A model generated the notes under the pieces. The model was not told the origin of the DNA, did not search any database, and worked only from the letters and a program-made list of their open reading frames with translations. From IMG/VR virus record IMGVR_UViG_3300042516_003420: 64,000 nt of DNA. One strand, 5' to 3'. The stretch is from an uncultured virus (IMG/VR IMGVR_UViG_3300042516_003420) (lineage: Duplodnaviria; Heunggongvirae; Uroviricota; Caudoviricetes). The translations under genes and the position numbers were made by a program. This document shows, piece by piece, positions 4,508 through 20,241 of this stretch; position 1 is the first letter of the stretch, and the number at the start of each line of letters is the position of its first letter.

Positions 4508-4535
4508 TGGTCAGTTTAAAGTCATAACCAGGACT
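4508..4535 (-). promoter_or_regulatory. H-type pseudoknot motif, copy 1
   Basis: AGTC-C-TGGTTA-T-GACT-TTAAAC-TGACCA. Confidence 0.8.
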
Positions 4536-4539
4536 TAAA

Positions 4540-4749
4540 TCAAGGTGCTTCTGCAAGTACGTTGTCACATGCAGTGCGAAGGGCATCAAGAACAAATGCT
4601 TTTTGCCCTTCTTCTCCCCAGGAGTTCCACAGTTCTAGATCAGGATCTGTCTCATCCCAATCAATAACAATGTCACAAGTACCATCAGGATTATCTTCTT
4701 TAACCTGAATGGTTAGCTTTTCTATCCAGCTCTTGTTCAACATGGCCAA
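4540..4749 (-). CDS. Hypothetical protein
   Basis: 69 aa ORF in operon. Confidence 0.65.
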   Translation of the reverse strand: MAMLNKSWIEKLTIQVKEDNPDGTCDIVIDWDETDPDLELWNSWGEEGQKAFVLDALRTACDNVLAEAP

Positions 4750-4918
4750 TTAACACGTTAAGTGCGTAGTCTTCATGATGCATCTTAAGGTCTGCAGCAA
4801 GCTTAACCAGTTCCCAGTGAGTATCTTCTGGGATAACAAGTTCGTATTCGAGGTAAGTCATTTTGGTTTTGGGTTGGGTTGCAAGTTGACGTGCGTACTC
4901 AAGGATGTCGTCAGTCAT
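4700..4918 (-). CDS. Hypothetical protein
   Basis: Start MTDDILEY overlaps the previous stop. Confidence 0.6.
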   Translation of the reverse strand: MTDDILEYARQLATQPKTKMTYLEYELVIPEDTHWELVKLAADLKMHHEDYALNVLIGHVEQELDRKANHSG

Positions 4919-5177
4919 CGGGCAAGGACTCCAGCTCGGCGGCGATGGCGAGAAGTTGCTGCCTGTGCCGACTGACCGCATCAAGCCGCCCTTCGTGGTA
5001 CAAAGTGCGCTCGTCTGCCGTGCGGGGCCTGCCAAGCTCTGGCACCACCTGATCCGCAGCAGCGCGGAGGGCGGCGGCGAGGCGTGCATGAAGTGTCGGC
5101 GTAGCGCGTCCGTATCCACCACCAGCTTCGACTGACGCATTGACAATTATTTGTGCGGCGGGGGAGAGGTTAGTCAT
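4911..5177 (-). CDS. Hypothetical cyanophage protein (GC-rich)
   Basis: 88 aa, MTNLSPAAQ..., overlapping start/stop with neighbours. Confidence 0.7.
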   Translation of the reverse strand: MTNLSPAAQIIVNASVEAGGGYGRATPTLHARLAAALRAAADQVVPELGRPRTADERTLYHEGRLDAVSRHRQQLLAIAAELESLPDD

Positions 5178-5541
5178 TGGGCAGGGCCTCCAGTGCGCGG
5201 CGGATCAGTGCGTGCTCATTAGCAGTAAGAAGTGTGATGGGGTTTGGGTAGTCCGGCCCTAGTGCGTGCCTCAACGCTTCCAGCGCCTGCTCCTTCAAAC
5301 TCGGCGGCTTGGGGCGTCTGGCGGCGCGGAGTTTTTCACTCCAGAAACCATCATTGAGTTCATCCAATGCCCCACAGCACGCCTCCAGCTCCTGGTCGGC
5401 GCCCCATTGGGCGGCTTGGGTGGCGATGTGCTGTTCGTACGCCCAGTGTTCATCGTTGTGTGGCACGCCTGAAAGGTTGGCGTCGTGCCCCCACTGCTGC
5501 ACCAGCTCCGGCGGTGGGGTGATGGGGTGTTGATTAGTCAT
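5170..5541 (-). CDS. Hypothetical cyanophage protein (HPITPPPEL / AAQWGADQELEACC type)
   Basis: 123 aa; paralogous to 18541-18876. Confidence 0.75.
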   Translation of the reverse strand: MTNQHPITPPPELVQQWGHDANLSGVPHNDEHWAYEQHIATQAAQWGADQELEACCGALDELNDGFWSEKLRAARRPKPPSLKEQALEALRHALGPDYPNPITLLTANEHALIRRALEALPND

Positions 5542-6482
5542 TTCTTTAGAGCGGACTTGAGTTGTGGTAGTGAGGTGCCAGGGAATGGGACATATCCGGC
5601 CTCCATCATATTGAAGAAAAGATCCCAGGCATCACGTTGATTAAAAATCTCCCTGGGTTTGTAAGCACGCCAATGGGTCAGTGGTGCTTGAGCACCAGAC
5701 TTGGTGTGCAATAAAACAAATCTCCCATCGCTGGTGGCATCAGCGGGAGGTGCATACCACCAGGCAACGCACTTATCTGGTGTGCCACTGGGTAATGCAT
5801 TACGCACTTCCGTTCGTTTGCACAGCAACTCACGGTACTTGTGGAACCAAGTCAGGTGGATACACCAGGGTCGGAAGCCTTGGATCTCCTGCTGGAACTC
5901 TGAAACATTAAGAAGCTGACGCTGAAAGGACCCACATGAGCAATAAGGTTCAGGTGTGACTGGCGATACGCCGTTGGCTTCTTCCTCCAAGTCAGACTCC
6001 AGGTCAATGGGCCTGTTTGGAAGCCGAATCCCATCCGGTGCCACCAGATGCCCAAGATCCGTTTGATCTGACTGGAGTAAGGCGGTGAGCTTTGCGGGGT
6101 CTGATAGGTGTATAAATTTGTCTGCCCAGTGCGCCTGCAATTGGGCGTTTGCGGTGATGTGTCCAAGGGCATGACTGTAGTTCCAACCTTTGAACATAAT
6201 GTAGGCACTATTGTGCCAAATGCTTGGACCTCTGTAGTTAGGACCAAGGTATGCAAAGAAATCCTTCAGCCTATGGGAGTAATCCATGAAGGCATGTTGG
6301 ATCACCGGCCGGTTGTAAGTTTGCTCACTACCATCACGGCGCACCACAAGACAATGATTGTCTCGCAGATAAATCCCGGAGATGTCAGTGTCATCAAAAT
6401 CCTGGAAGGCACGACGGAGATTCGTCCGCGTGTAGATGCACGCCTGCGCCTGGTTGAGTTCCTGGTGAGTCTGGGTTGACAT
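5538..6482 (-). CDS. SWIM zinc-finger-containing protein
   Basis: YCSCGSF...WCIH (CxC-xn-CxH). Confidence 0.65.
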   Translation of the reverse strand: MSTQTHQELNQAQACIYTRTNLRRAFQDFDDTDISGIYLRDNHCLVVRRDGSEQTYNRPVIQHAFMDYSHRLKDFFAYLGPNYRGPSIWHNSAYIMFKGWNYSHALGHITANAQLQAHWADKFIHLSDPAKLTALLQSDQTDLGHLVAPDGIRLPNRPIDLESDLEEEANGVSPVTPEPYCSCGSFQRQLLNVSEFQQEIQGFRPWCIHLTWFHKYRELLCKRTEVRNALPSGTPDKCVAWWYAPPADATSDGRFVLLHTKSGAQAPLTHWRAYKPREIFNQRDAWDLFFNMMEAGYVPFPGTSLPQLKSALKK

Positions 6483-6521
6483 GGTTGAGATGAAGTTGAG
6501 ATTGAATGAGAAGACCGGCCT

Positions 6522-6713
6522 TTAGCCCTGGACCTTCTTGCCCTCGATTTTAGAGGAGGATTTGGCGTTGCCATAAGCGCTCTTAGCAATTTGATAAGTG
6601 GCATAGGCGAGTGCACCCCAGGCAACAGGGTTACCAACAACCGCAAGAATGCCAGCACCAATGGCACCAAACGTTCCTGCCGTAACAATTGCTGCTTTTT
6701 CTTTAGGATTCAT
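6522..6713 (-). CDS. Small membrane protein
   Basis: Gly/Ala-rich hydrophobic segment; start MNPKEK. Confidence 0.6.
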   Translation of the reverse strand: MNPKEKAAIVTAGTFGAIGAGILAVVGNPVAWGALAYATYQIAKSAYGNAKSSSKIEGKKVQG

Positions 6714-6755
6714 TTGTTTGAATGGAATTAAAATAAGGTGTTCGGTGGTGTACAA

Positions 6756-7013
6756 ATGGAAATCAAGTACGTCCCGCTTACTAAATTCCAGATCGAACCT
6801 TCAATGGAGGATAAGTTCTGGGAAGAAAAGATTAAGCGTTCGATAGATGATTGTAACTCGGTAAGTACCTTGAAAGAAATGGCGACCCTCTTAGCGAGGA
6901 TCGCCACTCAACGTCAAGGTGTAATTCGTGGGTTAGTACAGGACATGTTCATCTTCAACAATGTTGCAGTTGAACAAGAAGACCTGACCAACCCAGAGAT
7001 TCCATCAGAGTGA
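6756..7013 (+). CDS. Small helical protein, distant NblA-like candidate
   Basis: PSMEDKFWEEKIKRSI...LKEMATLLARIATQRQGVIRGLV; lone plus-strand gene with upstream TAAAAT. Confidence 0.45.
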   Translation: MEIKYVPLTKFQIEPSMEDKFWEEKIKRSIDDCNSVSTLKEMATLLARIATQRQGVIRGLVQDMFIFNNVAVEQEDLTNPEIPSE

Positions 7014-8105
7014 ATCGTCTTCCCCGGTCAGTTCATCACGACCAGGAAGAGCTTTCACTTCAACGGCATCTACAGTACGAGAAACAGGAAGAATCTCTAC
7101 ACCCTCTTTGATTCCATAGGCACCACCAAGGCGCTGTGCATCCTGGCGGGAGTGTTGGTTGATGTAATCATCAAACATCTCCTGCATCTTCCAGGTTGAT
7201 TCACGATCTTCATCGGGAATGCTGAGGCGATTCAGGGATTTAATCGCTTCATCCTGGTTGCTGTAATCAGGGATGTCAAAAGATTCAATTGCGCAGATCT
7301 CAACGTTGTTGGCTCCACGCATTTCGTTGGCAAGTACCGGAGCAAATACGGTAGTGGCGTAGAACTTTTCATTGAAGCTCAGAGGTACTTCAGCATCCAG
7401 TGCTTTGCTCAGGCACTTAGACATTTCTTTCTCATAGATTTTAATCTTGTCAGAAATGTCGGTACCATTCAATCCCTTAATGGTCAAGACCATCGGGATC
7501 TTGTGAGCACGCTTGTTGTCCTGGGTCAGGATATAAACAAGGTATTTGGTACGCACGCTATAGCGACGCTTGTACATTTCGCCCTTGCTGTTGGCAAGGT
7601 CGGATGCAACCTTGTCATCATCGAACAGTGCCTTGACCTCAGGATTCTCAAAGGTACCAATGGTCTGACGCATGCCGTTGGTTTCCTCAACCATCAGAGG
7701 AGAACGCAGCAGGATCTGAATGCGAGGCTCAACAAAGTTTAGGCCCTCTTCAATGGAGGTGTTGGGAGCCATGCCAAAAGTCTGTTTGTAGTTCCAAAGA
7801 ACAGAACCATTGGCGAAATCAGATTCTTCTGCAGTCCAACCACAGGTGTCCAGGTCAGACTTACGCACAAACCAACCACGAACCTTGGACTTGTTCAGCG
7901 GTTGGATGGTCACCAAATTCTGGTAACCAGAGACAAACTCTTTGGACTGGAACATCTTGAAAGATTCCAGGCCGCGAGTAGCAAGAGCAGCAGTTTTCTT
8001 CACGGTCATTTTGTTAGAAGTTTTCAGAGAAGGAGAAGAGGTGGTTTCAGATTCAAGTGAATCCATCCAGGAGTCACTCATCATGTCAGTTGGAGACATG
8101 GTCAT
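7005..8105 (-). CDS. DUF5895-like conserved cyanobacterial/cyanophage protein
   Basis: 366 aa; GLNF..PRI.IL.RSPL and H.IPMVLTIKG motifs recalled for this family; sits in the replication module. Confidence 0.55.
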   Translation of the reverse strand: MTMSPTDMMSDSWMDSLESETTSSPSLKTSNKMTVKKTAALATRGLESFKMFQSKEFVSGYQNLVTIQPLNKSKVRGWFVRKSDLDTCGWTAEESDFANGSVLWNYKQTFGMAPNTSIEEGLNFVEPRIQILLRSPLMVEETNGMRQTIGTFENPEVKALFDDDKVASDLANSKGEMYKRRYSVRTKYLVYILTQDNKRAHKIPMVLTIKGLNGTDISDKIKIYEKEMSKCLSKALDAEVPLSFNEKFYATTVFAPVLANEMRGANNVEICAIESFDIPDYSNQDEAIKSLNRLSIPDEDRESTWKMQEMFDDYINQHSRQDAQRLGGAYGIKEGVEILPVSRTVDAVEVKALPGRDELTGEDDSL

Positions 8106-8127
8106 GGTCTGTTCTGAGTTTGGGTGA

Positions 8128-8154
8128 TGGTGCTTTTAACGTCATTCCAGGACG
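8128..8154 (-). promoter_or_regulatory. H-type pseudoknot motif, copy 2 (weaker stem 2)
   Basis: CGTC-C-TGGAA-T-GACG-TTAAAAG-CACCA. Confidence 0.65.
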
Positions 8155-8159
8155 GACCA

Positions 8160-8450
8160 TCACTTTAAATCGTCTTGCTGTAGGGGTACCGGTTTGGTTT
8201 GTATTTCTTCATCTTTATATTCAAAGTATTCATCCGTAATGCTACGCATAAAGTTGTAAATACAGTCCTCGCTGTAATCACATCCTTTAAGAAATAAAAT
8301 AAATTGACGAATTACTTCATCAACTAACTCATGTTGGCACATAGATATATGTTTATCTGTGCCATCAAAATGCATAAATGTGTAGCAATTATATGGAAAC
8401 TCTGTACCAAAAGGTAAAACAAGTTCCTGTTCTTCTTTAAACAAAGCCAT
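8160..8450 (-). CDS. Hypothetical protein (AT-rich)
   Basis: 96 aa ORF coupled to the SSB stop. Confidence 0.65.
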   Translation of the reverse strand: MALFKEEQELVLPFGTEFPYNCYTFMHFDGTDKHISMCQHELVDEVIRQFILFLKGCDYSEDCIYNFMRSITDEYFEYKDEEIQTKPVPLQQDDLK

Positions 8451-9250
8451 TAGAAAGGTGCCTCTTCAAGTTCAGGTGCAGAACCATACTGACCAGGCAG
8501 TTCAGGTAGACCTGCATTAACAGACCAGGGATCTGTATCCTCCTCTGCTTGACGCCCACCCCACAGAGGAGCAGGTGAGTCAGACGCAATTGTTGTAGAA
8601 GGTTTGATCTCTGCAGTAGATGTGGTATTCCCCTTGGGTGCAAGAGTCATCGACACCAATTGAATCTTGGTTTGAGACTTCTTCTCACCATTGGCATCCT
8701 TCCATGCATCAGTCACCAGCCTGCCCTGGATCGTAAGCCCAGTACCTTTCCTGGTGAAGTTAACCAGAAGTTCAGCGTTGTTCAGCTTATCTTCTGCTGT
8801 ATTGATGGCATAGAAGTTAAATAGATCTGCCTGATTCCTACCTGTATTAACAGATAGGGTTTGATTGCAGATCATCAACCCACCTTCCGTAGTTTTAAAC
8901 GCCCTGGCATCGTCCGTAGCAATGTCTTTAACGCAACGGCCGCCGAGGATGACGGTGTTAAGCATCGGGAACTGATCGTTGACCTGTACAACAGTGCCGC
9001 CATGGAGCGAGTGCGTTCTGCTTTCAAGGTCGAAGCGAAGCTTGGCGCCGTGAATGTAGATGTAGTTTCCCTTCTTAAGGCGAGAGAAACGTTCTGCATT
9101 CTTTCCATAGATGTTGAGATCGATTTGGGTTTGAGCTTTGTTACCAACAGGTGGCAGGATAACCGTGCAACGTGTGGCAGTAGAAGTTGCTGAGGTATAA
9201 ACCTCTCGCGGATCTTCGGACAGATACGCGTAAACGCAAGCAAAGTTCAT
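8450..9250 (-). CDS. ssb: Single-stranded DNA-binding protein with tandem OB folds
   Basis: Two SSB-like repeats (MNFA...LKKG..IYIHG and LNTVILGGR...RKGTGLTIQGRL...W); acidic tail ending EEAPF. Confidence 0.85.
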   Translation of the reverse strand: MNFACVYAYLSEDPREVYTSATSTATRCTVILPPVGNKAQTQIDLNIYGKNAERFSRLKKGNYIYIHGAKLRFDLESRTHSLHGGTVVQVNDQFPMLNTVILGGRCVKDIATDDARAFKTTEGGLMICNQTLSVNTGRNQADLFNFYAINTAEDKLNNAELLVNFTRKGTGLTIQGRLVTDAWKDANGEKKSQTKIQLVSMTLAPKGNTTSTAEIKPSTTIASDSPAPLWGGRQAEEDTDPWSVNAGLPELPGQYGSAPELEEAPF

Positions 9251-9270
9251 GTGTTCAGAAGGTAGGTGAA

Positions 9271-9297
9271 AGGCAGTTTAACGTCATACCTGGGACG
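9271..9297 (-). promoter_or_regulatory. H-type pseudoknot motif, copy 3 (upstream of ssb)
   Basis: CGTC-CC-AGGTA-T-GACG-TTAAAC-TGCCT. Confidence 0.8.
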
Positions 9298-9306
9298 AGC
9301 ATCGGA

Positions 9307-11166
9307 TTAGTGCGTCTCAGCCCAGGTGCTACCTACGCGTGAGTCGCCCTCAATCTTACAGCGGAATCCAAAAAATTCCTGCGCCTGTGGGAATGCACGC
9401 ATCGCCTGTTCCCTGACCACCTCGGTGAGTTCCTTAGGACAAGACAGTTGAATCTCATCGTGAATCATGGCGTGCTGAATCCAATCCTTGCCGTGCACCA
9501 AATCAAGTTCATCCAAATTCTTGTGGAGATTGATGACAACTTGTTTCATGATGAGTGCGCCTGCTGCTTGTAATAACAAATTCAATCCCTTGAATTCAGA
9601 TCGACAAAACAATGCACGCTGATCTAATCCCCTGAGATAACCACGGGATTGGATAGTCAGTCCAATGTTTTCTTTCAAGGCCTTAAGAGCAGGCACACCC
9701 TTCATGAATCCATTAATTGCAGAACTTCCCAGTTGACGCAGAACTTCTGGATCTTTTTCATTCGAATCAATGATTGTTCCAGCCTTGGTAGCGCCACATC
9801 CATAGAGCATCCCATAGAGCAAACGCTTGCTGATGTCCCTGGTCTCTACACCAAATTGCTCTTGGTTATAGGTATGGATATCAATGGAATCATCTGTTAC
9901 CAGCCGTGCGTATTCACCGTTATCCCAGACGGCAAGGTATCCGGCCAGGCAACGTAACTCAAGAGCCTTAGCATCGACCCCAATAAGGTCCCAATTATAA
10001 GGAGCGTGGAAAAGATTACGGCATTCCTTTCCATACGGGGAGTAAGATGCTGGGACTTGACCCATATTTGGATTGCGGTGTGCGCAGCGCCCGCTAATGC
10101 AACCGTTAGTAACCAAATCACCATGCATACAGAGGTCATCGTTGTTGACCAATTTAAGCCAAGCATTGTTTCCATCTGCAATTTGACCAAGGCGTTTCTT
10201 GACCAACATGTATTCAGCTAAGGGTCCTGCTTCGGCGTAGGGCAAAGCCGCGAGTATATCGTCATCAAGTATTGGATTTCCTTTCTCCGTTGTTTTGTCA
10301 GGCGTCCACCCGTACTTTTGTTTAAGTCGGTCTGCAATCTGAGTACGAGATCCCGGATTGAATTCCTCAAAGCGAACCTTCGTAAAGGGCTGACCTTTAA
10401 CATAGCCACGGGTTTTGTTATTGACCTTAGGGATAAAGGTATCTTCGTGCCGTATAGGCGGAAACAATTCCTTTAGGCTGACCTCCAGTTCCGCTTGCCT
10501 TGTTCTAAGGACATCCACAAGATCAAGGCATGCATCAATATCAAAAGGAAAACCTGCTCGAATTTGTCGGTTAACCGCCAGGGCAAAGTCATGTTCAAGC
10601 TTGAGCGCAGGACCTGGGTATTCCTGTGACGCAATGAAACGCCAGAGCTTGAGGGTGACCTGAACATCTTGGACGCAGTAGTCCAGCATCTCTTGAGAAT
10701 ATTTGGAGAAGTCCTTGAAGTCGATCTTATGATCGGCCAAGCGCCATCCCCAGGCCTTGAGAGAAGCTGTACCTCGGTTCTTCTTTGGAACCTGCGGATA
10801 TTGTTCATCGTCCAGTTCCTCCAATACTTCCTTGGGCCAGATCAATCTGGTGCAAATCAGTGTGTCGATAATGCATGATTTGCTGTCAAATGAATGTAGT
10901 TTTTGCAGAACTGGTAGGTCATAAAAAATTATGTTGTGGCCAATGAGTACATCAGCGGTTGCCAGATGAGCAAGAGCAGCATCAATACGATCAGGCCCGT
11001 AGCTAAAAGTTTTTGCTCGTGTAATGTCATGGATGACAATGCAAAAAATTTCCGTAACTTTGTCATACAACCCATCCGATTCAAGGTCAAAAATCAACCA
11101 TGTTTCATTTTCTGAAACGGGCTTCATCTTGAATTGAGAGTTCTTCACGGGAAAGTTGTTTGTCAT
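9307..11166 (-). CDS. DNA polymerase family A (T7 gp5-like) with 3'-5' exonuclease
   Basis: ExoI FDLESDG, ExoII GHNIIFYD, ExoIII YCVQDV; motif A DAKALELR, motif B RDISKRLLYGMLYG, motif C HDEIQ. Confidence 0.96.
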   Translation of the reverse strand: MTNNFPVKNSQFKMKPVSENETWLIFDLESDGLYDKVTEIFCIVIHDITRAKTFSYGPDRIDAALAHLATADVLIGHNIIFYDLPVLQKLHSFDSKSCIIDTLICTRLIWPKEVLEELDDEQYPQVPKKNRGTASLKAWGWRLADHKIDFKDFSKYSQEMLDYCVQDVQVTLKLWRFIASQEYPGPALKLEHDFALAVNRQIRAGFPFDIDACLDLVDVLRTRQAELEVSLKELFPPIRHEDTFIPKVNNKTRGYVKGQPFTKVRFEEFNPGSRTQIADRLKQKYGWTPDKTTEKGNPILDDDILAALPYAEAGPLAEYMLVKKRLGQIADGNNAWLKLVNNDDLCMHGDLVTNGCISGRCAHRNPNMGQVPASYSPYGKECRNLFHAPYNWDLIGVDAKALELRCLAGYLAVWDNGEYARLVTDDSIDIHTYNQEQFGVETRDISKRLLYGMLYGCGATKAGTIIDSNEKDPEVLRQLGSSAINGFMKGVPALKALKENIGLTIQSRGYLRGLDQRALFCRSEFKGLNLLLQAAGALIMKQVVINLHKNLDELDLVHGKDWIQHAMIHDEIQLSCPKELTEVVREQAMRAFPQAQEFFGFRCKIEGDSRVGSTWAETH

Positions 11167-11338: not shown

Positions 11339-11394
11339 AAAAGAAATGAAAGACGGACAGATGATATCCGATCCGTCTACATTTGCAAGTGCCT

Positions 11395-12162
11395 TCAAGA
11401 TTTATGTGGATTTGATTTGCCGTATCCCACAAATCCACCTTCCTTCTTGCGTTGAGTCACAGCTTTCATCGCATCAGACCCAGCCCGCTGGCTGCCGTGC
11501 ACCAGGAGTGCAAATGGTTTGTCACCCAAGCAATGGCTGTCATCATGATCAATCTCAAGACCTAGGTCTGCCGCTTGCTCTTCTGTGTAAACAACGTAAG
11601 CTACCCGCTGGAATACATCGGGATACTTGGGAATCAAGTAATCAAGCGTCCCACCGCAAGATGCGGTGAGATAAAAGTTGGATGGGATCTGATCACGCAA
11701 GTTGTACCACATGCCAAGGGACTTGGTGTATGCGTAGAACTTTTGCTTGGGGCGCAGGGCAGCAACCATCAACCAAGCCTTCATGTAGTTCTCAGTCCAG
11801 AAATCACCAGACTCATGGACACGCACCAGTTCCTTAGGCGGTTGCATGGTGAGTGATAGATCAAGCAGACCACGCAGCAACATGGCCTGGTTGCCGTTGG
11901 AATGGATGACCTCACGAATGAGATCCCAGTTATGCCAACGAGCTTCTCGCACGTTAGGACGCACCTCTGCCATGGCAGCAAAGCAACGGAACTCATCAGC
12001 CTGTGTGCCTGTGTACTGAGGCAGGTCAGTGATCAATCCTGTAACGCGGTCAGCAAATGTTTTGCACACACCAGCGTGAGGGCAGGAGTGACCAGCTGGC
12101 AAGGAGAAGATCAAACGATTCTTGAGCTTGCCGTTGCCGGTAGAAAACTTGAGGAGTTTCAT
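11395..12162 (-). CDS. Phage GP88-family protein (Cys-cluster, radical-SAM-like)
   Basis: GNGKL...FSLPAGHSCP.AG.C...CFA; RVHESGDF; YAYTKS. Confidence 0.75.
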   Translation of the reverse strand: MKLLKFSTGNGKLKNRLIFSLPAGHSCPHAGVCKTFADRVTGLITDLPQYTGTQADEFRCFAAMAEVRPNVREARWHNWDLIREVIHSNGNQAMLLRGLLDLSLTMQPPKELVRVHESGDFWTENYMKAWLMVAALRPKQKFYAYTKSLGMWYNLRDQIPSNFYLTASCGGTLDYLIPKYPDVFQRVAYVVYTEEQAADLGLEIDHDDSHCLGDKPFALLVHGSQRAGSDAMKAVTQRKKEGGFVGYGKSNPHKS

Positions 12163-12197
12163 GGTGTTGAATTGAGTTGAATGATAAGCGTAGCTTA

Positions 12198-12225
12198 TGG
12201 ATAAGTTTAAGGACATTCCAGGTCC
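12198..12225 (-). promoter_or_regulatory. H-type pseudoknot motif, copy 4
   Basis: GGAC-C-TGGAA-T-GTCC-TTAAAC-TTATCCA. Confidence 0.7.
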
Positions 12226-14001: not shown

Positions 14002-14246
14002 TCATAGTTATAGCGGATATCATTTTCACCTTTAACGGCTTGCTCAACAAGCCATTCAACAACATCTTCAGCGGTGTAGTTACGCCTAACAAAATTGTTA
14101 TTCTCTTCGGTAAGAATACGTTCTGCAATTAAACGCATAAACTTACCATACTTTTTACCTGGATTAGAGTTCCACCCTTCATCCAGATGTTTCATTTCAA
14201 TCCATAGAGGACGTGTAAATTCATCCATGTCATTCACCTGGAACAA
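13989..14246 (-). CDS. Hypothetical protein
   Basis: ORF in operon. Confidence 0.6.
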   Translation of the reverse strand: MFQVNDMDEFTRPLWIEMKHLDEGWNSNPGKKYGKFMRLIAERILTEENNNFVRRNYTAEDVVEWLVEQAVKGENDIRYNYDWEI

Positions 14247-14523
14247 TAACTTCTCTACTTAGTTTAGCTAAGTCATCTATAGGACAGATCCTGCATTGCG
14301 CATGTTCGGTAGGAGTTTGCAGGTGATCCCACAGGATGTGCAGTAGCTTTTGCTTTGCACCACGAGATGTAGTCTTCTCGCTAAAGCCAACAACAGTGCC
14401 GTACCGTTGACTGCGGTATTGTGCAATCCGTTCTTGAACTTCCTTGCGCACTGCCATAAGGCCATGCGTCTTGGGACGTTCAGCTACACGATCACCAATC
14501 CCATAGATTGCTTTGCTTTTCAT
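14230..14523 (-). CDS. Hypothetical protein (SH3/KOW-like)
   Basis: IGDRVAE...YGTVVG...HILWD. Confidence 0.6.
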   Translation of the reverse strand: MKSKAIYGIGDRVAERPKTHGLMAVRKEVQERIAQYRSQRYGTVVGFSEKTTSRGAKQKLLHILWDHLQTPTEHAQCRICPIDDLAKLSREVIVPGE

Positions 14524-14858
14524 TTGATGTTGGAGTAAGTTTTGTAGTTGATGATGCGAGAAATTGTACTGCGATTCTGATTGAATCGAATGGCAAGCTG
14601 CCCATTGCTTAATCCCTGTTGATGTAGATGACGGATCATCAATACATCACGTTCTGTCAGTGTCGACATGGGATGATCGCATCCCTCCTTGGGAGAAAAG
14701 TCAGCGGGCATCTTGGGCTTAGGTACTTCATACCGTTCAACAGTACGAAACTTAGAGCCACAATCCAGACATCTACAGTATCGTTTAACAACTTCAGGAT
14801 GAATTTTATCTGTACATGTTACTCGCGTGTTGAAGCTATTGCATGAACGGCAATTCAT
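14520..14858 (-). CDS. Zinc-ribbon (NrdR/Ogr-like) plus HTH DNA-binding protein
   Basis: MNCRSC...RYCRCLDCGSKFRTVE; C-terminal LAIRFNQNRSTISRII. Confidence 0.75.
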   Translation of the reverse strand: MNCRSCNSFNTRVTCTDKIHPEVVKRYCRCLDCGSKFRTVERYEVPKPKMPADFSPKEGCDHPMSTLTERDVLMIRHLHQQGLSNGQLAIRFNQNRSTISRIINYKTYSNIK

Positions 14859-15271
14859 TCTGGATCAATAGAACTCGGAGCGCTATCAGTAGATTCTTCC
14901 TCTTCACGTTTTGCCTTGGGACCAGGAATTTTATCTAGCTGTAAACTATCAAGAATATACAATGCACTCTCCTGACCTTTGATACGCATCAGGTCAGGGA
15001 TTAGTTCCATTGGATTCTGAATGTAGTAATCTGTGAGATACAGTTCGCACATTCGGAACATTGTATCCATTGGAAGTTCATCCACAATATTGGCAACCGT
15101 TGCATCCAATACAGCAGGCCAAGTGTGGCGAGGTACAAGATCACAGATCTTTAGGACAAGTTCCATATCCACATCTTCAGGTGTGGGAATGTCTTGCTCT
15201 GATGTTTCTTGATGCACCTGAGGGAGTTGAGCTTCTTGTTGTTCAGTCATGTGATCAGGGTTTAGTTTCAT
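14855..15271 (-). CDS. Hypothetical protein
   Basis: 138 aa ORF. Confidence 0.65.
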   Translation of the reverse strand: MKLNPDHMTEQQEAQLPQVHQETSEQDIPTPEDVDMELVLKICDLVPRHTWPAVLDATVANIVDELPMDTMFRMCELYLTDYYIQNPMELIPDLMRIKGQESALYILDSLQLDKIPGPKAKREEEESTDSAPSSIDPE

Positions 15272-15318
15272 GAGAAGTAGCCCCTGCCAAAACAGGGGCC
15301 AGACATTCCGTAGGAATA

Positions 15319-15681
15319 TTACGCAGGTTGTGCGCTGGTGTCTACTACTTCATCCATCAGTCCTGATTCTTTGAGCCGATCCAACATGCCGCACATGATG
15401 GTGGCATGGGCATGGGTTTGTTCCATGAACATCTTGGCTCGGTCTGCGGACATGACATGGGTACGTCCGCAGGGTTCCACATACTTCCAGCTGCCATCAG
15501 GCTGGGGATCACCCTGGAGGGCAAGACGCTCTGAGTTTCGAACGTACCGTAGTTCGAGGTTGTGATAGTCCTTAAGGCCGTCAGCCGCTGTCCAGGTTGC
15601 TCCAATGTTGTACCTCTGATCATCGTCAGAGTAAGCGTGGAATTCAGGAATGAGGTTGGCAAATGCAGCTAGGAATTGCAT
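15319..15681 (-). CDS. Hypothetical protein
   Basis: 120 aa ORF directly after tRNA-Leu. Confidence 0.7.
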   Translation of the reverse strand: MQFLAAFANLIPEFHAYSDDDQRYNIGATWTAADGLKDYHNLELRYVRNSERLALQGDPQPDGSWKYVEPCGRTHVMSADRAKMFMEQTHAHATIMCGMLDRLKESGLMDEVVDTSAQPA

Positions 15682-15704
15682 GATTGTAATGAATTGAAGG
15701 TGGG

Positions 15705-15790
15705 TGGTAGGGACGGCGGGACTTGAACCCGCAAGGCCAATGGCCGACGCATTTTAAGTGCGTTACGTATACCTATTCCGTCACGTCCCC
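15705..15790 (-). tRNA. tRNA-Leu(UAA), intronless, CCA encoded
   Basis: GGGGACG/CGTCCCT-ACCA; anticodon arm ACGCA-CTTAAAA-TGCGT; long variable arm GGCC-ATT-GGCC; T loop GGTTCAAGTCC. Confidence 0.95.
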
Positions 15791-16000
15791 ATCACTTGGA
15801 CTTACCTCTACATCAATGGATGTTGAGTGCCAAGTGTGATCATGAGGCAATGGCTCAGTGCCATAGCTCCATGTATCGTAGTCATCCTCATTACGAGGAT
15901 CTTCATCAATCAGAATGTACTGCGGTGAATTGTCGTGGATGTATTCACCAATGTTAGCCATGGCCATGGCAAGCAGTTGGTCATCGGTGTAGTCAGTCAT
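15773..16000 (-). CDS. Hypothetical acidic protein (stop lies inside tRNA-Leu)
   Basis: 75 aa ORF. Confidence 0.6.
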   Translation of the reverse strand: MTDYTDDQLLAMAMANIGEYIHDNSPQYILIDEDPRNEDDYDTWSYGTEPLPHDHTWHSTSIDVEVSPSDGDVTE

Positions 16001-16051
16001 TGGTAGAAACCAGCCCTAGTATCGAGGCTAAGGCTGGTAAACCGTGCGGGC

Positions 16052-17761
16052 TCAGGCAGATTGTAGCTGCTTCTCCCGCTTCTGCAAGACCTCACGGAAA
16101 GCTTCCGTGTAGGCTTCCTTTTGCTCGTCCGTCAGTCGCTTGTTGGCTACGCCAGCAATCTGCTTAACAGACATCAGACCATGATCCACAACCAATTGAA
16201 TTGTGAATGTGGGATTACCATCAATCATGCAGAGCACAATGAAGTGTTTACGTTTCTTGATGTCTTCTGCATAATGAGATGCAGAACCCACGCAGTTGCG
16301 TACAGCCTGGCCCCACATGGCTAGTTGATGTGTGTCAACAGGCTGGAAGAATGACCAGGTTTCATCTTGACGGGTAACCCTAATAGGTTCAGGGAATAAA
16401 TCCTGACGTAAAGATTCCTTAGGATTCTGAATCTTCCAGGATTCTGCCTGGATGTAATCATGGAACTCGGTGATGCGCCACCGCTTGGGAGGCTCAAGAG
16501 TTTTACCATCTTCCAGGATGTTAATGATCATAGAGAATGTGTCATTCAGTTCATAAAAGTTTTGGCGTGCATAACCAACCTCACTGTCAATCCAACGCTC
16601 AAGATCTTGTTGTTCCAGATGCTTACGCAACATGGTAAACATTGATGCAACTGGCATATGCTCACATATCCAAACAAGAAGAGCGCCGTTGGTACGAATG
16701 CGGGCAAGGCGAATGTACTTGAGTTCTTTCATATAGGTTTGATAGTAATCAACAGGACAATCACCCCAGATCATTTGAATCCAATAAATTGAATTGCAGA
16801 TCTGTACAAATGTATTGAAGGCTTGCTTAATTGGATCACGCCGTTTGTTATCTGGATCTGTGTAATGTTCAGTAGCTTTATCTAGTTCAGCTTGCAATAC
16901 TTTTCGAATAGCAGGTTTAGTAATGATGTGTTTAATTGATGAGATGCTTGTATATATTGTTGAGGAGTAATGTGATTCATAGTTAAATTTATCTGCGGCA
17001 TTGACAATATTATCTACAGTTAAACCTTGGCTAACATCAAGATGCCTCTTGATTGAATCAGGAATATCTGCTGCATCAAATACATTCTTACAACGTATAC
17101 GATCAAATATTCCACGGGAATCTTCCCACAATGGAATGTTTTCACGCAGGCTTTCTTCAAGCTTAAGCGCTGCATTCTGGTTGATATCGTATCCCTTCTG
17201 ACAATAAAGATTCCCAGCTTTCCAGTGATAGCTACCCCAAGCATTGTTGTTGCTAGCTTCAATCTGTTCTTTGGTTACATTCTCCATGTAGGTGAATGTT
17301 TCACAGCCTCGGCCAATCTGGTGAGCAACACATTTATCCTTGCTTGTCCAGATGTAATGCGGTGCAGTCTTGGCAGCAGCAGCTGTATTCTTGAATGCAT
17401 AGCCATAGCCATACACATACTGATCAGCTTCCTGCTTGGGAGGCAGCCATGCTGCATACCACACCTGTTCGTAGTGATACAGGATGGCAATGACTTTGAG
17501 TCTGGCCTGTGGGGTTGCTACGTCCACAGGCGTAGTAAATACTTTGTACCGATCTGGTGCTGATTGCTGGTTGATGTGATCAATCGCAGCTTGCTGATCT
17601 GATTCACGCACCACGTTATGTGGAATGAGATGCGGAATGTTGCCCAGTGGGTACTTCGATTTCTTGGTTGTAGCTTTCTTGGTTTGCTTTGCCAACACCT
17701 TCAGTGTTGGGTCATAAGCCAAGAGTTCAGTTTGAAGGTTGGATGGAAGTTGGAATTGCAT
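16052..17761 (-). CDS. PcfJ-like domain protein
   Basis: C-terminal EFHD...P.....L..WG.AVRNCVGS..Y......I...QI.G..N pattern. Confidence 0.75.
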   Translation of the reverse strand: MQFQLPSNLQTELLAYDPTLKVLAKQTKKATTKKSKYPLGNIPHLIPHNVVRESDQQAAIDHINQQSAPDRYKVFTTPVDVATPQARLKVIAILYHYEQVWYAAWLPPKQEADQYVYGYGYAFKNTAAAAKTAPHYIWTSKDKCVAHQIGRGCETFTYMENVTKEQIEASNNNAWGSYHWKAGNLYCQKGYDINQNAALKLEESLRENIPLWEDSRGIFDRIRCKNVFDAADIPDSIKRHLDVSQGLTVDNIVNAADKFNYESHYSSTIYTSISSIKHIITKPAIRKVLQAELDKATEHYTDPDNKRRDPIKQAFNTFVQICNSIYWIQMIWGDCPVDYYQTYMKELKYIRLARIRTNGALLVWICEHMPVASMFTMLRKHLEQQDLERWIDSEVGYARQNFYELNDTFSMIINILEDGKTLEPPKRWRITEFHDYIQAESWKIQNPKESLRQDLFPEPIRVTRQDETWSFFQPVDTHQLAMWGQAVRNCVGSASHYAEDIKKRKHFIVLCMIDGNPTFTIQLVVDHGLMSVKQIAGVANKRLTDEQKEAYTEAFREVLQKREKQLQSA

Positions 17762-17789
17762 GATGAGTTCGGAGTAGGTTCGGAGTTGG

Positions 17790-17817
17790 TGAGCAGTTTA
17801 ACGTCATACTCAGGACG
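17790..17817 (-). promoter_or_regulatory. H-type pseudoknot motif, copy 5
   Basis: CGTC-C-TGAGTA-T-GACG-TTAAAC-TGCTCA. Confidence 0.85.
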
Positions 17818-17911
17818 CATGATTATTTCATAAATCCAGTGGCAAGATAAACCCTGCCCCTGGGACCACGCAGTACAAAGTACCAGCGTTTGAATTCAAT
17901 TGAGAAACCAA

Positions 17912-18172
17912 TCATTGATCTAGATGCCAATCGGATGTGTCGATGAGTTGCCACTCAAGATTGAGTGAATCAAGATAGCTACAGAAGCCATCTTCGTCAG
18001 TAGGGATCTGTTCTCCTTCATCCAGTTCGAAAGAAGCTGTGCACAATGCAGGAGCCCATTCCTCAGGGTCGAGATGAGTTGCTCTGTAGAGCAAACGCAT
18101 TTCGTCCACAACTGCTGTAACAGTGACATCATATCCATCAATGGTGGTGTTTTCGATTGCAAGTACAGTCAT
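17912..18172 (-). CDS. Hypothetical protein
   Basis: 86 aa ORF (DPEEWAPALC). Confidence 0.7.
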   Translation of the reverse strand: MTVLAIENTTIDGYDVTVTAVVDEMRLLYRATHLDPEEWAPALCTASFELDEGEQIPTDEDGFCSYLDSLNLEWQLIDTSDWHLDQ

Positions 18173-18357
18173 TAGTTTTCCTCAATGAACTGACATTCTT
18201 TGGTGATGTAACACCGATACTTAGTCCATGTGCGTGCCGTGAGGTACTCACCATGGAATCGATCAGTGTCATACAGATTCATCTCAGCCCTGCGCACAGC
18301 GCAGTTGGCGATATGAATGCGATCAAACAATGTGAGGCAATCAGTTGCAGTTGACAT
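18172..18357 (-). CDS. Hypothetical protein
   Basis: 61 aa ORF, TAATG-coupled. Confidence 0.6.
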   Translation of the reverse strand: MSTATDCLTLFDRIHIANCAVRRAEMNLYDTDRFHGEYLTARTWTKYRCYITKECQFIEEN

Positions 18358-18365
18358 GATCTGAA

Positions 18366-18569
18366 TTAGAAATCAAAGAGTTTGATGTTGCGCTTGGACA
18401 AGCCGGTGCCTGGGATTGAAATAGATCCCAACACACCAGACTTACGGGCGTTCAGCGTCAGCTGAAACGGTCCAAGCTGAAAGGATTTGGTGTAGGACTT
18501 AATGCCATGTTCAGTGACATTAAGTCCATGGATAGTGCGATCAAAATTTAATGGAGATTTGTCGGTCAT
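18366..18569 (-). CDS. DUF4236-like small protein
   Basis: LGPFQLTLN..KSG...SISIPGTGLS. Confidence 0.6.
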   Translation of the reverse strand: MTDKSPLNFDRTIHGLNVTEHGIKSYTKSFQLGPFQLTLNARKSGVLGSISIPGTGLSKRNIKLFDF

Positions 18570-18876
18570 CTTTGAGTTTGGAAATGAATTGTTGGAGTTC
18601 ATCTTCAGTACCAGTAATTGATACTGTCAATGTTGTTTGCTTCGGCTTAGACCTACGCTTATTGCGTAGATCCCGCACAGAAGATTCACGTTGGAACTTG
18701 GTGCCACATACTGAATTAGATTTGAATAATGCACAGCATTCTTCTAATTCAATATCTGCACCCCACTGTGCAGCTTCAATGAGAAGTTTACTGAAACTCT
18801 TACCATACTTCTGGTACTGTTGACGCCAAGCGTCAAGTAAGTAATCTGTTGGAACAACAGGATGTTCTTGTGTCAT
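18541..18876 (-). CDS. Hypothetical protein, paralog of 5170-5541
   Basis: MTQEHPVVP...EAAQWGADIELEECC. Confidence 0.7.
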   Translation of the reverse strand: MTQEHPVVPTDYLLDAWRQQYQKYGKSFSKLLIEAAQWGADIELEECCALFKSNSVCGTKFQRESSVRDLRNKRRSKPKQTTLTVSITGTEDELQQFISKLKDDRQISIKF

Positions 18877-18957
18877 TTGAGGTGAGTTGAGTTAGGACTT
18901 GAAGTCTACCAGCGATGTCAAGTCACCGGTAGAATTACAGATTCCCTTAATGTTTCG

Positions 18958-19248
18958 TTAGCTCCAGGCTTCGCGCTTCTCTTTGCGAGCTGCCTCGTGC
19001 ATCTCTGCCATGGTCAGCGGAGGTTCGCCAACTTCATCGATGTCATAATCAACATCAAGTTCATTCACAAGCATTGGAATGATCTCTTCCTCAAGTAATG
19101 CAGTCATACTTGGAGTAAGGTGTTGATCCATCTGATGACGTTTAGCTTCACGAGCCATGACATCTTGAAGGATGGTTAATGCTTGTTGTACGTACACGTA
19201 CTCATTCTGTTTCCAGTTAATGGATGGGTATTGAGTTGGAGTGTTCAT
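18958..19248 (-). CDS. Hypothetical protein
   Basis: Start MNTPTQ; C-terminal GEPPLTMAEMH. Confidence 0.65.
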   Translation of the reverse strand: MNTPTQYPSINWKQNEYVYVQQALTILQDVMAREAKRHQMDQHLTPSMTALLEEEIIPMLVNELDVDYDIDEVGEPPLTMAEMHEAARKEKREAWS

Positions 19249-19381
19249 TGTGATGAGAGGGTAGGTAGATGGAAGGTTATCTACTAATAAAAGGATTATT
19301 CCCTGGTACTCCCCTGCGGGGGTCTGGGGGGAATGCTTGGTATCTATCCAAGAGATTCCTCCTTCGGGATATAAGTAAAAC

Positions 19382-19633
19382 TTATGTGACGATAGGATCT
19401 TTGATGATCCAGGCGGTGTAATACTTGTTGGTTCGATCAACTGAAATAAGGTTGTATTCCTCCAGCTTGGCCAGTGCTTTAAGGTAGTCTGGCAATCTGG
19501 AAGTTTGTGTACCTACCCTTGGCACGAAGCATGGGTTATTGCCATGCCTCTTCTTGTGTGCCAAGTAGTAGGTGTATAGGTTGCGTTGATTGATTGTCAA
19601 CGAAGGCATACCGTTCTTGATTTGAGTAGACAT
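19382..19633 (-). CDS. Putative winged-helix DNA-binding protein
   Basis: LTINQRNLY...YLKALAKLEEYNLISVDR. Confidence 0.55.
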   Translation of the reverse strand: MSTQIKNGMPSLTINQRNLYTYYLAHKKRHGNNPCFVPRVGTQTSRLPDYLKALAKLEEYNLISVDRTNKYYTAWIIKDPIVT

Positions 19634-19989
19634 TAGATCAAGCCGAGAATCCTAAGCCAGCTGTCGGGGTGGTCTGGTTCAACTTCATCTTCTCCTGGTG
19701 TGAAGCAGGTGCTGTCGAACGTCCACTCTTCGATCTCTTCGTTGGTTGGGATGTCGTACCAACCTGTGAGTTCGTCCTTCTCTTCGGCTGTGTAGTTGTC
19801 TCCGGTTGGGATCCAGAAGCAACGCAGCACACCTCGCTTGTTCCTGTAGACGTTACCGGTGCAGACGATGGCGCCTTTGGGTGCGTCTTGGAAGTCTGGA
19901 TACGCTTGGTACTGCTGCTCTCCTTCTTCTGAACTGAGGGGTTCATAGCCGAAGGCTGAGGCGATTTCTTGAGTGACGGGGTGAAGCAT
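19633..19989 (-). CDS. Hypothetical cyanophage protein
   Basis: 118 aa ending EVEPDHPDSWLRILGLI; TAATG-coupled to the next gene. Confidence 0.7.
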   Translation of the reverse strand: MLHPVTQEIASAFGYEPLSSEEGEQQYQAYPDFQDAPKGAIVCTGNVYRNKRGVLRCFWIPTGDNYTAEEKDELTGWYDIPTNEEIEEWTFDSTCFTPGEDEVEPDHPDSWLRILGLI

Positions 19990-20055
19990 GAGATTAGTTC
20001 TGTGATGAGGATTGAGATGAGTGTGATGATGACAATGATGATGTCATCTTGATTG

Positions 20056-20193
20056 TTAGGTTTGGTCATCGTAAGGTTCCTGTTCGGTTGGGTTGAGTTC
20101 GTATTCTTCACGCATAGCTTGCTCCTGCTTATAGGCAATGTCTGCCATGGCATCAAGCAAGTCAGCGTTGTAGTTGGGGTCCAGTTGAGTCAT
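20056..20193 (-). CDS. Small acidic protein (45 aa, not in ORF track)
   Basis: MTQLDPNYNADLLDAMADIAYKQEQAMREEY...; follows pseudoknot copy 6. Confidence 0.6.
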   Translation of the reverse strand: MTQLDPNYNADLLDAMADIAYKQEQAMREEYELNPTEQEPYDDQT

Positions 20194-20213
20194 GGTTTGA
20201 ATTGATAAAAAGC

Positions 20214-20241
20214 TGAGCAGTTTAACGTCATACTCAGGACG
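20214..20241 (-). promoter_or_regulatory. H-type pseudoknot motif, copy 6
   Basis: Identical to copy 5. Confidence 0.85.

Follow-up and report, generated by a model that had tools for sequence, protein, structure and literature searches.

Six candidate pseudoknots in a cyanophage genome

The DNA analyzed here, called the window, is a stretch of 64,000 nucleotides (nt) from an uncultured virus of the Caudoviricetes (IMG/VR record IMGVR_UViG_3300042516_003420). A protein search, in which the portal-like protein was 74% identical, identified it as a cyanophage related to Synechococcus phage S-EIVl; a megablast search with 17 kb of the window against named phages produced no match. Between positions 4508 and 20241 the minus strand carries six intergenic copies of an RNA element of about 28 nt that is very probably an H-type pseudoknot, as judged by the covariation described below, and each copy precedes an ATG. 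The elements had been singled out in a first-pass annotation made from the letters of the window, and their coordinates and sequences were all recovered. The copies follow one layout. Stem 1 (S1), nGUC/GACn, has an invariant closing C-G pair, loop 1 (L1) is a C, stem 2 (S2) consists of 5-7 base pairs (bp) of free sequence, one base forms the junction, and loop 3 (L3) reads UUAAA(C). The invariant parts of the family are the 4-bp hairpin with its C-G closing pair, the C at the first loop position, and the spacer UUAAAC(U). The six copies are listed below with the scores and expectation (E) values given by a covariance model and with the neighboring open reading frames (ORFs), the lengths of which are in amino acids (aa).

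4508-4535, minus strand: copy 1, S1 AGUC/GACU, L1 C, S2 UGGUUA/UGACCA, L3 UUAAAC (43.5 bits, E 8e-10); 4 nt 3′ of the stop codon of a 69-aa ORF and 22 nt 5′ of the ATG at 4485 (39-aa ORF, then the Sipho_Gp157 gene)
8128-8154, minus strand: copy 2, the weakest, S1 CGUC/GACG, 7-nt loop, short S2 UGG/CCA, L3 UUAAAAG (21.8 bits, E 9e-4); 5 nt 3′ of the stop codon of a 96-aa ORF and 22 nt 5′ of the ATG at 8105 (DUF5895 protein)
9271-9297, minus strand: copy 3, S1 CGUC/GACG, S2 AGGUA/UGCCU (44.1 bits); 9 nt 3′ of the DNA polymerase stop codon and 20 nt 5′ of the SSB ATG at 9250
12198-12225, minus strand: copy 4, S1 GGAC/GUCC (two compensatory pairs), 7-nt loop, 4-bp S2 UGGA/UCCA; at least 51 nt 3′ of the upstream stop codon and 35 nt 5′ of the GP88 ATG at 12162
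17790-17817, minus strand: copy 5, S1 CGUC/GACG, S2 UGAGUA/UGCUCA (48.7 bits); 5 nt 3′ of the stop codon of a conserved 43-aa ORF (17823-17954) and 28 nt 5′ of the PcfJ-like ATG at 17761
20214-20241, minus strand: copy 6, identical in sequence to copy 5, S2 extendable to 7 bp, C-UUUUU next (48.9 bits); 45 nt 3′ of the upstream stop codon and 20 nt 5′ of the ATG at 20193 (45-aa acidic ORF)

The distances to the start codon thus lie between 20 and 35 nt for all six copies, as the first-pass annotation had claimed, and the names it had given to the downstream genes agreed with those returned by Pfam: Sipho_Gp157 (the second gene, after the 39-aa ORF), DUF5895, SSB, GP88, and PcfJ.

The window was searched in three ways. 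A structural scan of both strands for a 4-bp Watson-Crick S1, a loop of 6-10 nt, TTAAA, and an S2 of at least 3 bp between the loop and the next 12 nt found seven places, six of which are the copies listed. The core 11-mer ATGACGTTAAA occurs exactly four times, each time within a copy; when up to two mismatches were allowed, it had 31 matches compared to 18.2 ± 4.0 in shuffled sequences, and none of 100 shuffles reached 31. The covariance model, built from relatives with S2 as its sole structural part and run with the filters off, recovered five of the six copies (E from 2.6e-11 to 9e-4), and nothing else scored better than E = 2. Copy 4, with its GGAC/GUCC stem, was missed because the model treats S1 as sequence. 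The seventh place found by the structural scan, at 41812-41846 (minus strand), reads CCCC-UGGAAUCCCA-GGGG-UUAAA and differs from the copies in loop and context. Its neighbors are two late genes on the plus strand, opposite to its own. It shares with copies 2 and 4 the start of the loop, UGGAAU, as well as UUAAA, and may be a bidirectional terminator.

Covariation of both helices

Both stems covary strongly across about 150 distinct relatives. The covariation claimed from the six copies was confirmed in two sets, one collected by pattern and the other by protein homology. For the former, a pattern that fixed only GUCC, AUGAC, and UUAAA and left S2 free was used to search IMG/VR, where it matched at least 120 loci. 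Set A1 consists of the 95 distinct 33-mers of the 8-nt-loop class among the matches listed, chance matches included. In this set 88% of the cells were paired, compared to 18-47% with slid partners, and 132 cells showed double changes versus 40 ± 9 after shuffling; none of 500 shuffles reached 132. The outer pair of S1 and all four inner pairs of S2 were in register in 72 of the 95 sequences, where chance was estimated to give (6/16)^5, or about 0.7%. The inner three pairs of S1 and the loop C were fixed by the pattern and are hence uninformative in this set; the covariation of S2 is not circular because S2 was absent from the pattern.

The second set (A3) was fetched through homologs of the PcfJ-like protein (39 loci, 44-74% identity) and not through the motif. 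These loci contained 78 matches to the covariance model, all 78 on the gene strand, and a copy was located directly 5′ of the PcfJ-like homolog in 35 of the 39, as counted from the match table. Among the 49 distinct sequences, 98.6% of the cells were paired. Within S1, pairs 1-16 (CG 42, GC 4, UA 2) and 3-14 (UA 45, AU 4) covary, although S1 is not part of the model's structure. In each set four pairs of S2 had changes on both sides; in the set of 95 these were pairs 7-27, 8-26, and 9-25 (25-33 sequences each) and pair 10-24 (14 sequences), and the paired fraction of S2 cells was 81.6% in A1 and 98.3% in A3. The closing pair C4-G13 was kept in 48 of the 49 sequences of set A3 and in all stem variants seen (GGAC/GUCC, CGAC/GUCG, CGCC/GGCG, UCUC/GAGA), and column 5 was a C in 49 of 49. 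The AAA of the spacer was invariant in every instance seen, and the two bases before it varied (AA, AU, CU, CA). Compensatory changes in two interleaved helices, strict co-orientation with genes, and intergenic placement indicate a structure selected as RNA rather than a double-stranded DNA operator, in agreement with what the first-pass annotation had argued.

The first-pass annotation had also proposed a comparison with Rfam, and no family of Rfam 15 matched the element. In the window only three transfer RNAs (tRNAs) passed the gathering threshold, copy 5 searched at E values of up to 10 gave only two chance matches to snoRNAs, and in related loci (20 + 9 + 13) only tRNAs scored above the gathering score. 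Below threshold, the related loci yielded one hammerhead beside the motif, not on it, and four other matches. The hammerhead-like core, CUGAUGAG...CGAAA, lies at 121-189 of locus L138, a contig from a gammaproteobacterial metagenome-assembled genome (MAG), about 12 nt 3′ of a copy of the knot with a 9-nt loop (Rfam Hammerhead_HH9, 21.4 bits, E 0.09, under the gathering score).

Distribution of the family

S-EIVl carries five clear copies at syntenic sites with different stem sequences, plus two weaker ones. S-EIV1-like cyanophages have 6-7 copies per genome, and four unrelated IMG/VR contigs have one copy each; the use of multiple copies is a trait of the S-EIV1 lineage, and elsewhere the element is usually single. 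One record, G001 (43.7 kb), is without the motif, an absence that is uninformative at a completeness of 55%. In L127 (genome G006, 3355-3480), L157, L283, and L291, two or three copies stand in tandem at intervals of 25-300 nt. The G006-type phage has three copies in a row 5′ of the gene that precedes the major head gene, and one of them has the stem CGCC/GGCG and AC in place of AU.

When two copies were used as BLAST queries against named phages, intergenic matches were found in Lactobacillus phages (Lj771, KC5a, phi jlb1, phig1e, phiEF-1.1), Staphylococcus phages SAP3 and PMBT9, Geobacillus phage D6E, Anoxybacillus phage A403, Streptococcus phages, Mycobacterium phage Labelle, the T7-like Paracoccus phages ParMal1 and ParKuw1 and Nostoc phage NMeng1, the T4-like cyanophages S-SM2, S-H35, and S-RIM4, a group of Vibrio phages, and others. 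Eleven matching phages were inspected at the sequence level, and in all of them both helices were kept with varied sequence. The variants included the stems CGAC/GUCG (SAP3), UGAC/GUCG (Lj771), and UCUC/GAGA (a Vibrio phage) and the spacers AAAAAC (Labelle), AUAAAC (S-H35), CUAAAC (S-SM2), and CCAAAAC (ParMal1).

The element is also found on prophage-like contigs of many phyla. A scan of a bacterial genome collection, which covered the 9-nt-loop variants only and is no census, gave 26 matches, about 13 of them with an S2 of 6-7 bp. Ten or 11 had the outer pair of S1 and five of five inner pairs of S2, and 3 more had all seven S2 pairs with a mismatched S1 outer pair. The contigs were labeled Saccharimonadales, Patescibacteria, Omnitrophota, Richelia, Synechococcus, Bacillota, Pelotomaculum, Crocinitomicaceae, Desulfomonilaceae, Gastranaerophilaceae, and, in one case, a gammaproteobacterial MAG. 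A 36-nt copy gave no BLAST match in 5,426 Escherichia coli genomes; a query with a free S2 is insensitive, and this result does not amount to absence.

Gene context, spacing, and neighboring features

The element is co-oriented with genes. Around 59 instances, the share of the flanking 800 nt taken up by long open frames was 61% for the same strand and 15% for the opposite one. The first-pass annotation had placed the element exclusively before early and replication genes. For the lineage of the window this stood, and the plus-strand late arm of the window contains none; it did not hold for other phages, which carry the element in their late structural operon. Outside the S-EIV1 lineage its commonest place is just 5′ of the head scaffolding and capsid genes; in L124, L125, L127, D6E, SAP3, and Lj771 it lies between a portal or minor-head gene and the scaffolding and major capsid genes. 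Forty-seven proteins encoded downstream were annotated, from loci with long flanks (L206-L283, leaving out the near-duplicates L220, L229, L240, L260, L256, and L258 and a truncated ORF of L283). Thirteen were head scaffolding proteins of two families, one was a major head protein, two were SSBs, two HNH endonucleases, and one a methyltransferase; three belonged to PHROGs of unknown function, and 25 had no match. A tRNA begins 5-10 nt past the end of the knot in L149 and in NMeng1-type contigs, and in Labelle one is found about 180 nt 3′ of the knot. The placement a few nucleotides before tRNAs argues against a role confined to translation.

Spacing was measured in 148 distinct instances, many of them related to one another, by counting the nucleotides that separate the stop codon of an upstream ORF on the same strand (30 codons or longer) from the first S1 base. 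The gap was 5 nt in 50 of the 148, 6 nt in 10, 7 nt in 7, 8 nt in 6, and 9 nt in 4; it was below 5 nt in only 3, and 16 lacked an ORF of this kind within 60 nt. Unrelated phages (L217, L267, L280) also show the 5-nt gap. On the other side, the distance from knot to start codon was 20-29 nt in 83 of the 148. Such a sharp minimum at 5 nt is consistent with a structure that is not meant to be opened by ribosomes. Takyar, Hickerson and Noller reportedly found in 2005 that the ribosome unwinds mRNA about 11 nt from the first base of the P site, and on this geometry 5 nt would be the closest that a stop codon in the A site could come without the knot being opened.

A run of U directly follows S2 in 15 of 24 UUAAAA-type instances versus 9 of 69 of the UUAAAC type; in the window, C-UUUUU after S2 is seen at copy 6 only. 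In the UUAAAAGG subfamily (L024, L046, L097, L109, and similar Firmicutes-type loci) S2 is followed by the U-run and then by AUGC or ACAC. The same tail follows canonical terminators just upstream in these loci, and a -10 sequence resembling TGnTAAAAT lies about 30 nt further 3′.

The other features near the copies in the window are the following; SD stands for Shine-Dalgarno sequence and hp2 for the second hairpin of the coremin RNAs, which are discussed in the next section.

12184-12198, minus strand: hp2-like hairpin AUAAGC-UAC-GCUUAU, directly abutting S2 of copy 4
20242-20257, minus strand: GC-rich hairpin GGGGUGA-CU-UCACCCC, abutting copy 6 on its 5′ side with no spacer
17762-17789, minus strand: G-poor leader without SD, following copy 5
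4486-4507, 8106-8127, 9251-9270, 12163-12197, and 20194-20213, minus strand: equivalent leaders of the other copies
366-439 (plus), 444-515 (plus), and 15708-15790 (minus): three tRNA genes (Rfam, 57-75 bits), the last within the early arm, between motif-bearing operon segments

Relatives (L185, L187, L194) share the arrangement of the copy 6 site with an abutting hairpin, which in them reads GGGGUGGUAUCACCCC; the hairpin at 20242-20257 might be a terminator or a second protective structure. Similar G-poor leaders were seen in relatives. The leader of the PcfJ-like gene contains a direct repeat, ACUCCGAAC occurring twice, where relatives (L185, L186, L188, L200) have CUACGAACUCA / CUCCGAACUCA, and a second type of leader, UUCCAUUUACCYACUCAAWUCA, recurs 5′ of other genes. 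These recurring leaders imply that the repeated unit takes in the G-poor, SD-less leader. The unannotated-looking 43-aa ORF before copy 5 (17823-17954, minus strand) is probably a real gene, because its last eight residues, YLATGFMK, are kept in L163 despite six synonymous codon changes. The terminal codons of the 96-aa ORF preceding copy 2, at 8160-8169 (minus strand), are GAU UUA AAG UGA. This includes a slippery-type heptamer in the zero frame, U UUA AAG, directly followed by the stop codon, and the pseudoknot begins 8 nt past the heptamer. The geometry is that of a -1 frameshift site, yet the -1 frame has no junction to the next gene, and this is a single case.

Similarity to the coremin RNAs of plant viruses

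A full-text search for the conserved string led to coremin, a motif of exoribonuclease-resistant RNAs (xrRNAs), also called xrRNA_C. [quoted passage not shown] The enzyme stalls one nucleotide 5′ of the first hairpin. The stem of hp1 may have 3-5 bp, its loop-closing pair being C-G (Y-R) and its remaining pairs free as long as they are complementary. According to the same passages, coremin cannot do without the closing C-G pair, a pyrimidine at loop position 1, the AAA (A15-A17), C18, U19, and A20. The spacer is free at its first two bases, coremin tolerates swapped pairs at the second and third stem positions and a missing outer pair, and tandem copies occur among natural motifs. The loop consensus is given as YGAD or YGNNAD, hepta- and octaloops being tolerated with no defined consensus (passages of PMC10520033). 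In a Watson-Crick variant, xrRNA_WCC (Dilweg et al. 2019, 2023), the three bases that follow UUAAA form pairs with loop bases 6-8, a single nucleotide (base 5) makes up L1, and the adenines are predicted to occupy the S1 minor groove (passages of PMC10520033, PMC6546385, PMC10321173).

By comparison of sequences and predicted pairings, the conserved core of the phage family matches coremin in its Watson-Crick form. The hp1 stem is the same 4-bp nGUC/GACn, the first seven spacer bases, UUAAACU, are the same in the main subfamily, and the family is invariant at three elements essential in coremin, the closing C-G pair, the pyrimidine at loop position 1, and the AAA. The natural variants of the phage element are changes that coremin tolerates: the spacers AAAAAC, AUAAAC, and CUAAAC, swapped stem pairs, a lost outer pair, and tandems. 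Like xrRNA_WCC, the phage element has an L1 of one nucleotide and an S2 that extends from the loop to just after UUAAA. The last two bases of the loop, A and U/C/A, fit the A-D ending of the coremin loop. The base that corresponds to A20 is a G in the phages, and the UUAAAAG subfamily changes the counterparts of C18 and U19; in xrRNA_WCC these positions are likewise free, since they take part in pairing. Other properties differ: the phage loop has 7-9 nt instead of 4-6, S2 has 5-7 bp instead of 3 bp or non-canonical pairs, there is an extra junction base, and the phage element is found between cistrons in the mRNAs of double-stranded DNA phages, whereas coremin is located in 3′ untranslated regions. 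Taken together, the two elements probably share a fold, a conclusion held with somewhat better than even confidence.

Copy 4 and its orthologs have a hairpin at the position of hp2, and the minimum free energy (MFE) structure of copy 4 consists of hp1 and hp2 (-7.4 kcal/mol). At the GP88 site a hairpin of at least 5 bp within 5 nt was present in six of eight distinct sequences with a 4-bp S2 and in none of seven with a 6-bp S2, although L198 and L199 do carry a hairpin about 10 nt further on; these sequences are related, and the contrast is a hint, not a statistic. A general test for a hairpin after S2 gave 13 of 129 instances with an S2 of at least 6 bp versus 45 of 173 with a shorter one, a noisy result, as the relaxed pattern admits many chance matches. 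The two-hairpin layout of copy 4 and the trade-off at the GP88 site suggest that a long S2 can take over the bracing role that hp2 has in coremin.

Possible functions of the element

The best supported reading is that the element acts as a roadblock that would stall a nuclease and affect mRNA levels. It would constitute a protein-independent barrier against decay of the RNA downstream, which we put forward tentatively, at a little short of an even chance, and which gains independent support from the match between its core and the coremin xrRNA of plant viruses. In a polycistronic early mRNA the knot, placed where a cistron or tRNA has its 5′ edge, would act as a mechanical barrier in one direction, and most likely no dedicated protein would be needed for this. 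An upstream endonucleolytic cut or the removal of pyrophosphate would let in a 5′-3′ exonuclease, the candidate in cyanobacteria and Firmicutes being RNase J, which would stall at the knot. In other hosts, such as Vibrio, 5′-end-dependent scanning by RNase E could be obstructed. The downstream cistron, with its unstructured G-poor leader and start codon, would survive, stay translated, and outlast the upstream message. RNase J is present in cyanobacteria (title of PMC12464536). Such a barrier would fit the placement before the genes from which the most product is required (scaffold, capsid, SSB) and before tRNAs, the independence from any shared phage protein, and the in vitro block of bacterial RNase J1 by a flaviviral xrRNA, unrelated to the phage element, reported in passages of PMC5760640. 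A more far-reaching proposal, in which tailed phages of many bacterial phyla carry a true exoribonuclease-resistant RNA that shares the coremin fold, by descent or by tight convergence, and use it as a universal protein-free decay insulator, seems possible and is held with appreciable doubt. It would add that the element sets the relative stability of cistrons (capsid and scaffold above portal, SSB above polymerase) and abuts the terminating ribosome of the upstream gene.

A number of observations weigh against the decay barrier. Nested folding of the copies gave energies of -2.8 to -7.4 kcal/mol and z-scores between -1.7 and +0.5, which is unremarkable; MFE values and z-scores are uninformative for this element because it is a pseudoknot, and the case rests on covariation. 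A variant is present in Vibrio phages, which a barrier to RNase J alone does not explain, as Vibrio is not known to have this enzyme. The barrier also leaves unexplained the U-run after S2 in the UUAAAA type, which has the look of an intrinsic terminator, and the accumulation of stop codons exactly 5 nt upstream may point to a link with translation termination and not with decay. With respect to coremin, the phage loop has a U instead of G at position 2 (T6 in at least 90% of alignment A2), five of the six window copies lack the hp2 that coremin strictly needs, and the UUAAAAG subfamily deviates at the equivalents of the essential C18 and U19. The resemblance could reflect convergence on a stable triplex pseudoknot with another function.

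The stop codon pile-up speaks for a ribosome-directed element, in which the terminating ribosome of the upstream gene abuts the knot and the knot acts on translation. It might block read-through or sliding 70S ribosomes and so uncouple the cistrons, or it might form with the leader a standby or enhancer platform for SD-independent initiation. Besides the 5-nt stop gap common to unrelated phages, with only three closer cases, the start codon at 20-29 nt and the lack of SD sequences in cyanophage leaders agree with this explanation, and coremin is described in passages of PMC10520033 and PMC10321173 as a block to scanning ribosomes and a stimulator of -1 frameshifting, also in an E. coli screen. 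It is nevertheless considered unlikely, since there are copies 5-10 nt 5′ of tRNA genes, others follow long non-coding gaps or hairpins with no nearby stop codon (copies 4 and 6 of the window), most are not preceded by a slippery heptamer, and Firmicutes phages have a normal SD 55-100 nt further on; a mode of 5 nt would also be expected if genomes were compacted down to a hard lower limit. The U-runs, in turn, together with that of copy 6, raise the case for an element acting on transcription, as an intrinsic terminator in the nascent RNA, a stabilizer of the 3′ end of the upstream transcript, or a put-like antiterminator that modifies the polymerase. Firmicutes-type loci often have canonical terminators just 5′ and promoter-like sequences just 3′, and the element occupies operon-internal boundaries. 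This possibility appears distinctly unlikely, because the U-run is infrequent in the UUAAAC type and missing at five of the six window copies, a terminator would not need the invariant AAA and closing pair, and the knot is tightly spaced to downstream start codons and tRNAs.

The first-pass annotation had proposed a regulon nucleated by SSB or another protein, similar to that of gene 32, as one of two options, the other being the roadblock to 5′-3′ decay. More generally, the element could be a site for a specific protein, such as the phage SSB repressing as in T4 gene 32 or another RNA-binding protein, or for a small ligand as in a riboswitch. The conserved single-stranded C5, U12, and UUAAAC offer possible recognition points, one copy precedes SSB in the S-EIV1 lineage, and all six window copies lie in the replication arm. 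The SSB-centered proposal is not supported by the comparison with relatives. The same element is found 5′ of scaffolding, capsid, small ORF, methyltransferase, and tRNA genes in unrelated phages, and SSB is the downstream product of only one of the six window copies and 2 of the 47 annotated proteins, versus 13 for scaffolding. Unrelated genes, phages, and host phyla imply that neither a phage-specific protein partner nor control of translation alone can be the general function. In addition, the phages, with their unrelated gene sets and hosts, mostly have a single copy before scaffolding genes or tRNAs, the annotations run revealed no shared phage protein, no riboswitch family matched, and the conserved bases are those needed for the protein-free activity of coremin, all of which makes a protein or ligand site improbable. 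A signal at the level of DNA, such as a promoter recognized by the polymerase of phage or host, or a structure in single-stranded DNA that serves replication or recombination, would agree with promoter-typical positions in some phages, after terminators and before genes, and with the -10-like hexamers sometimes seen a few bases upstream. It is highly improbable: two interleaved helices of free sequence with compensatory changes are unexpected for a duplex recognition site, the mRNA strand carried 78 of 78 matches, the upstream ORF usually ends 5 nt before the element, and phages with and without their own polymerase have it.

Exoribonuclease-resistant RNAs have so far been reported from RNA viruses of eukaryotes. 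The passages of PMC10520033 and PMC10321173 on coremin contain no mention of phages or bacteria, and literature searches that combined coremin motif, xrRNA, or exoribonuclease-resistant with bacteriophage found no report of phage elements; one of the 10,006 candidates in the phage RNA catalog of PMC10690425 may cover the element. Even without a role in nuclease resistance, this is a widespread, strongly covarying phage RNA family, absent from Rfam, and therefore deserves description. If phages do rely on the coremin fold for nuclease resistance, the element would be the first natural xrRNA of prokaryotic viruses and its fold would be common to double-stranded DNA phages and eukaryotic RNA viruses. 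Bacterial 5′-3′ decay, by RNase J and perhaps through RNase E scanning, would then be a selective force on phage operons, and raised output of scaffold, capsid, and SSB within long operons would be explained. The family would also supply hundreds of natural variants toward solving the still unknown structure of coremin and a tiny, portable, mRNA-stabilizing insulator for bacterial engineering.

Comparison with other known RNA elements

Several identities were considered and dropped. The pistol ribozyme, which resembles the element in its P1 loop pseudoknot and UUAAAU linker, did not fit in helix order and core, and neither helix order nor conserved cores fitted in the case of minimal HDV-like and theta ribozymes, preQ1 riboswitches, and the hammerhead core; none of these models matched. 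In the cyanophage nothing structured lies 3′ of the knot, which also speaks against small ribozymes and riboswitches. A tRNA-like structure or RNase P substrate mimic was rejected because the 5′ and 3′ ends exit at opposite ends of the stacked helix. A general -1 frameshift or readthrough signal was rejected since a slippery heptamer is missing from most upstream sequences and the read-through frame has no junction to the next gene.

Four known systems resemble the element in part. Like the T-even gene 32 pseudoknot, it is a small H-type knot in a 5′ leader, followed by an unstructured region, and one copy precedes an SSB gene. No sequence likeness was seen, however, the phage element is much closer to the start codon, it is found 5′ of many unrelated genes and tRNAs across phage groups, and it has no observed link to the binding of SSB. 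The xrRNAs of the flavivirus and dianthovirus type (classes 1-3) are viral, protein-independent, and based on a pseudoknot, as the phage element would be. They differ in being three-way-junction or stem-loop folds of 45-70 nt that form a ring around the 5′ end, and they have no sequence or secondary-structure likeness to the 28-nt phage knot. The GP20-a and GP20-b motifs (RF02991, RF03003) and the newer candidates described in passages of PMC10690425 also lie 5′ of GP20-type head scaffolding genes in Caudoviricetes. These motifs are 72-107 nt long and the newer candidates are at most 25 nt from the gene, whereas the knot is 45-160 nt upstream, and Rfam scans of the loci upstream of scaffold genes gave no GP20-a or GP20-b match. 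The fourth system is that of the frameshift pseudoknots of the luteovirus type. The one from beet western yellows virus (BWYV) has about 28 nt, a short L1 that contains a C, and a loop rich in A that follows the S1 minor groove, as in the knot, and the phage element differs from this type in that it has no preceding slippery site and lies outside any reading-frame overlap.

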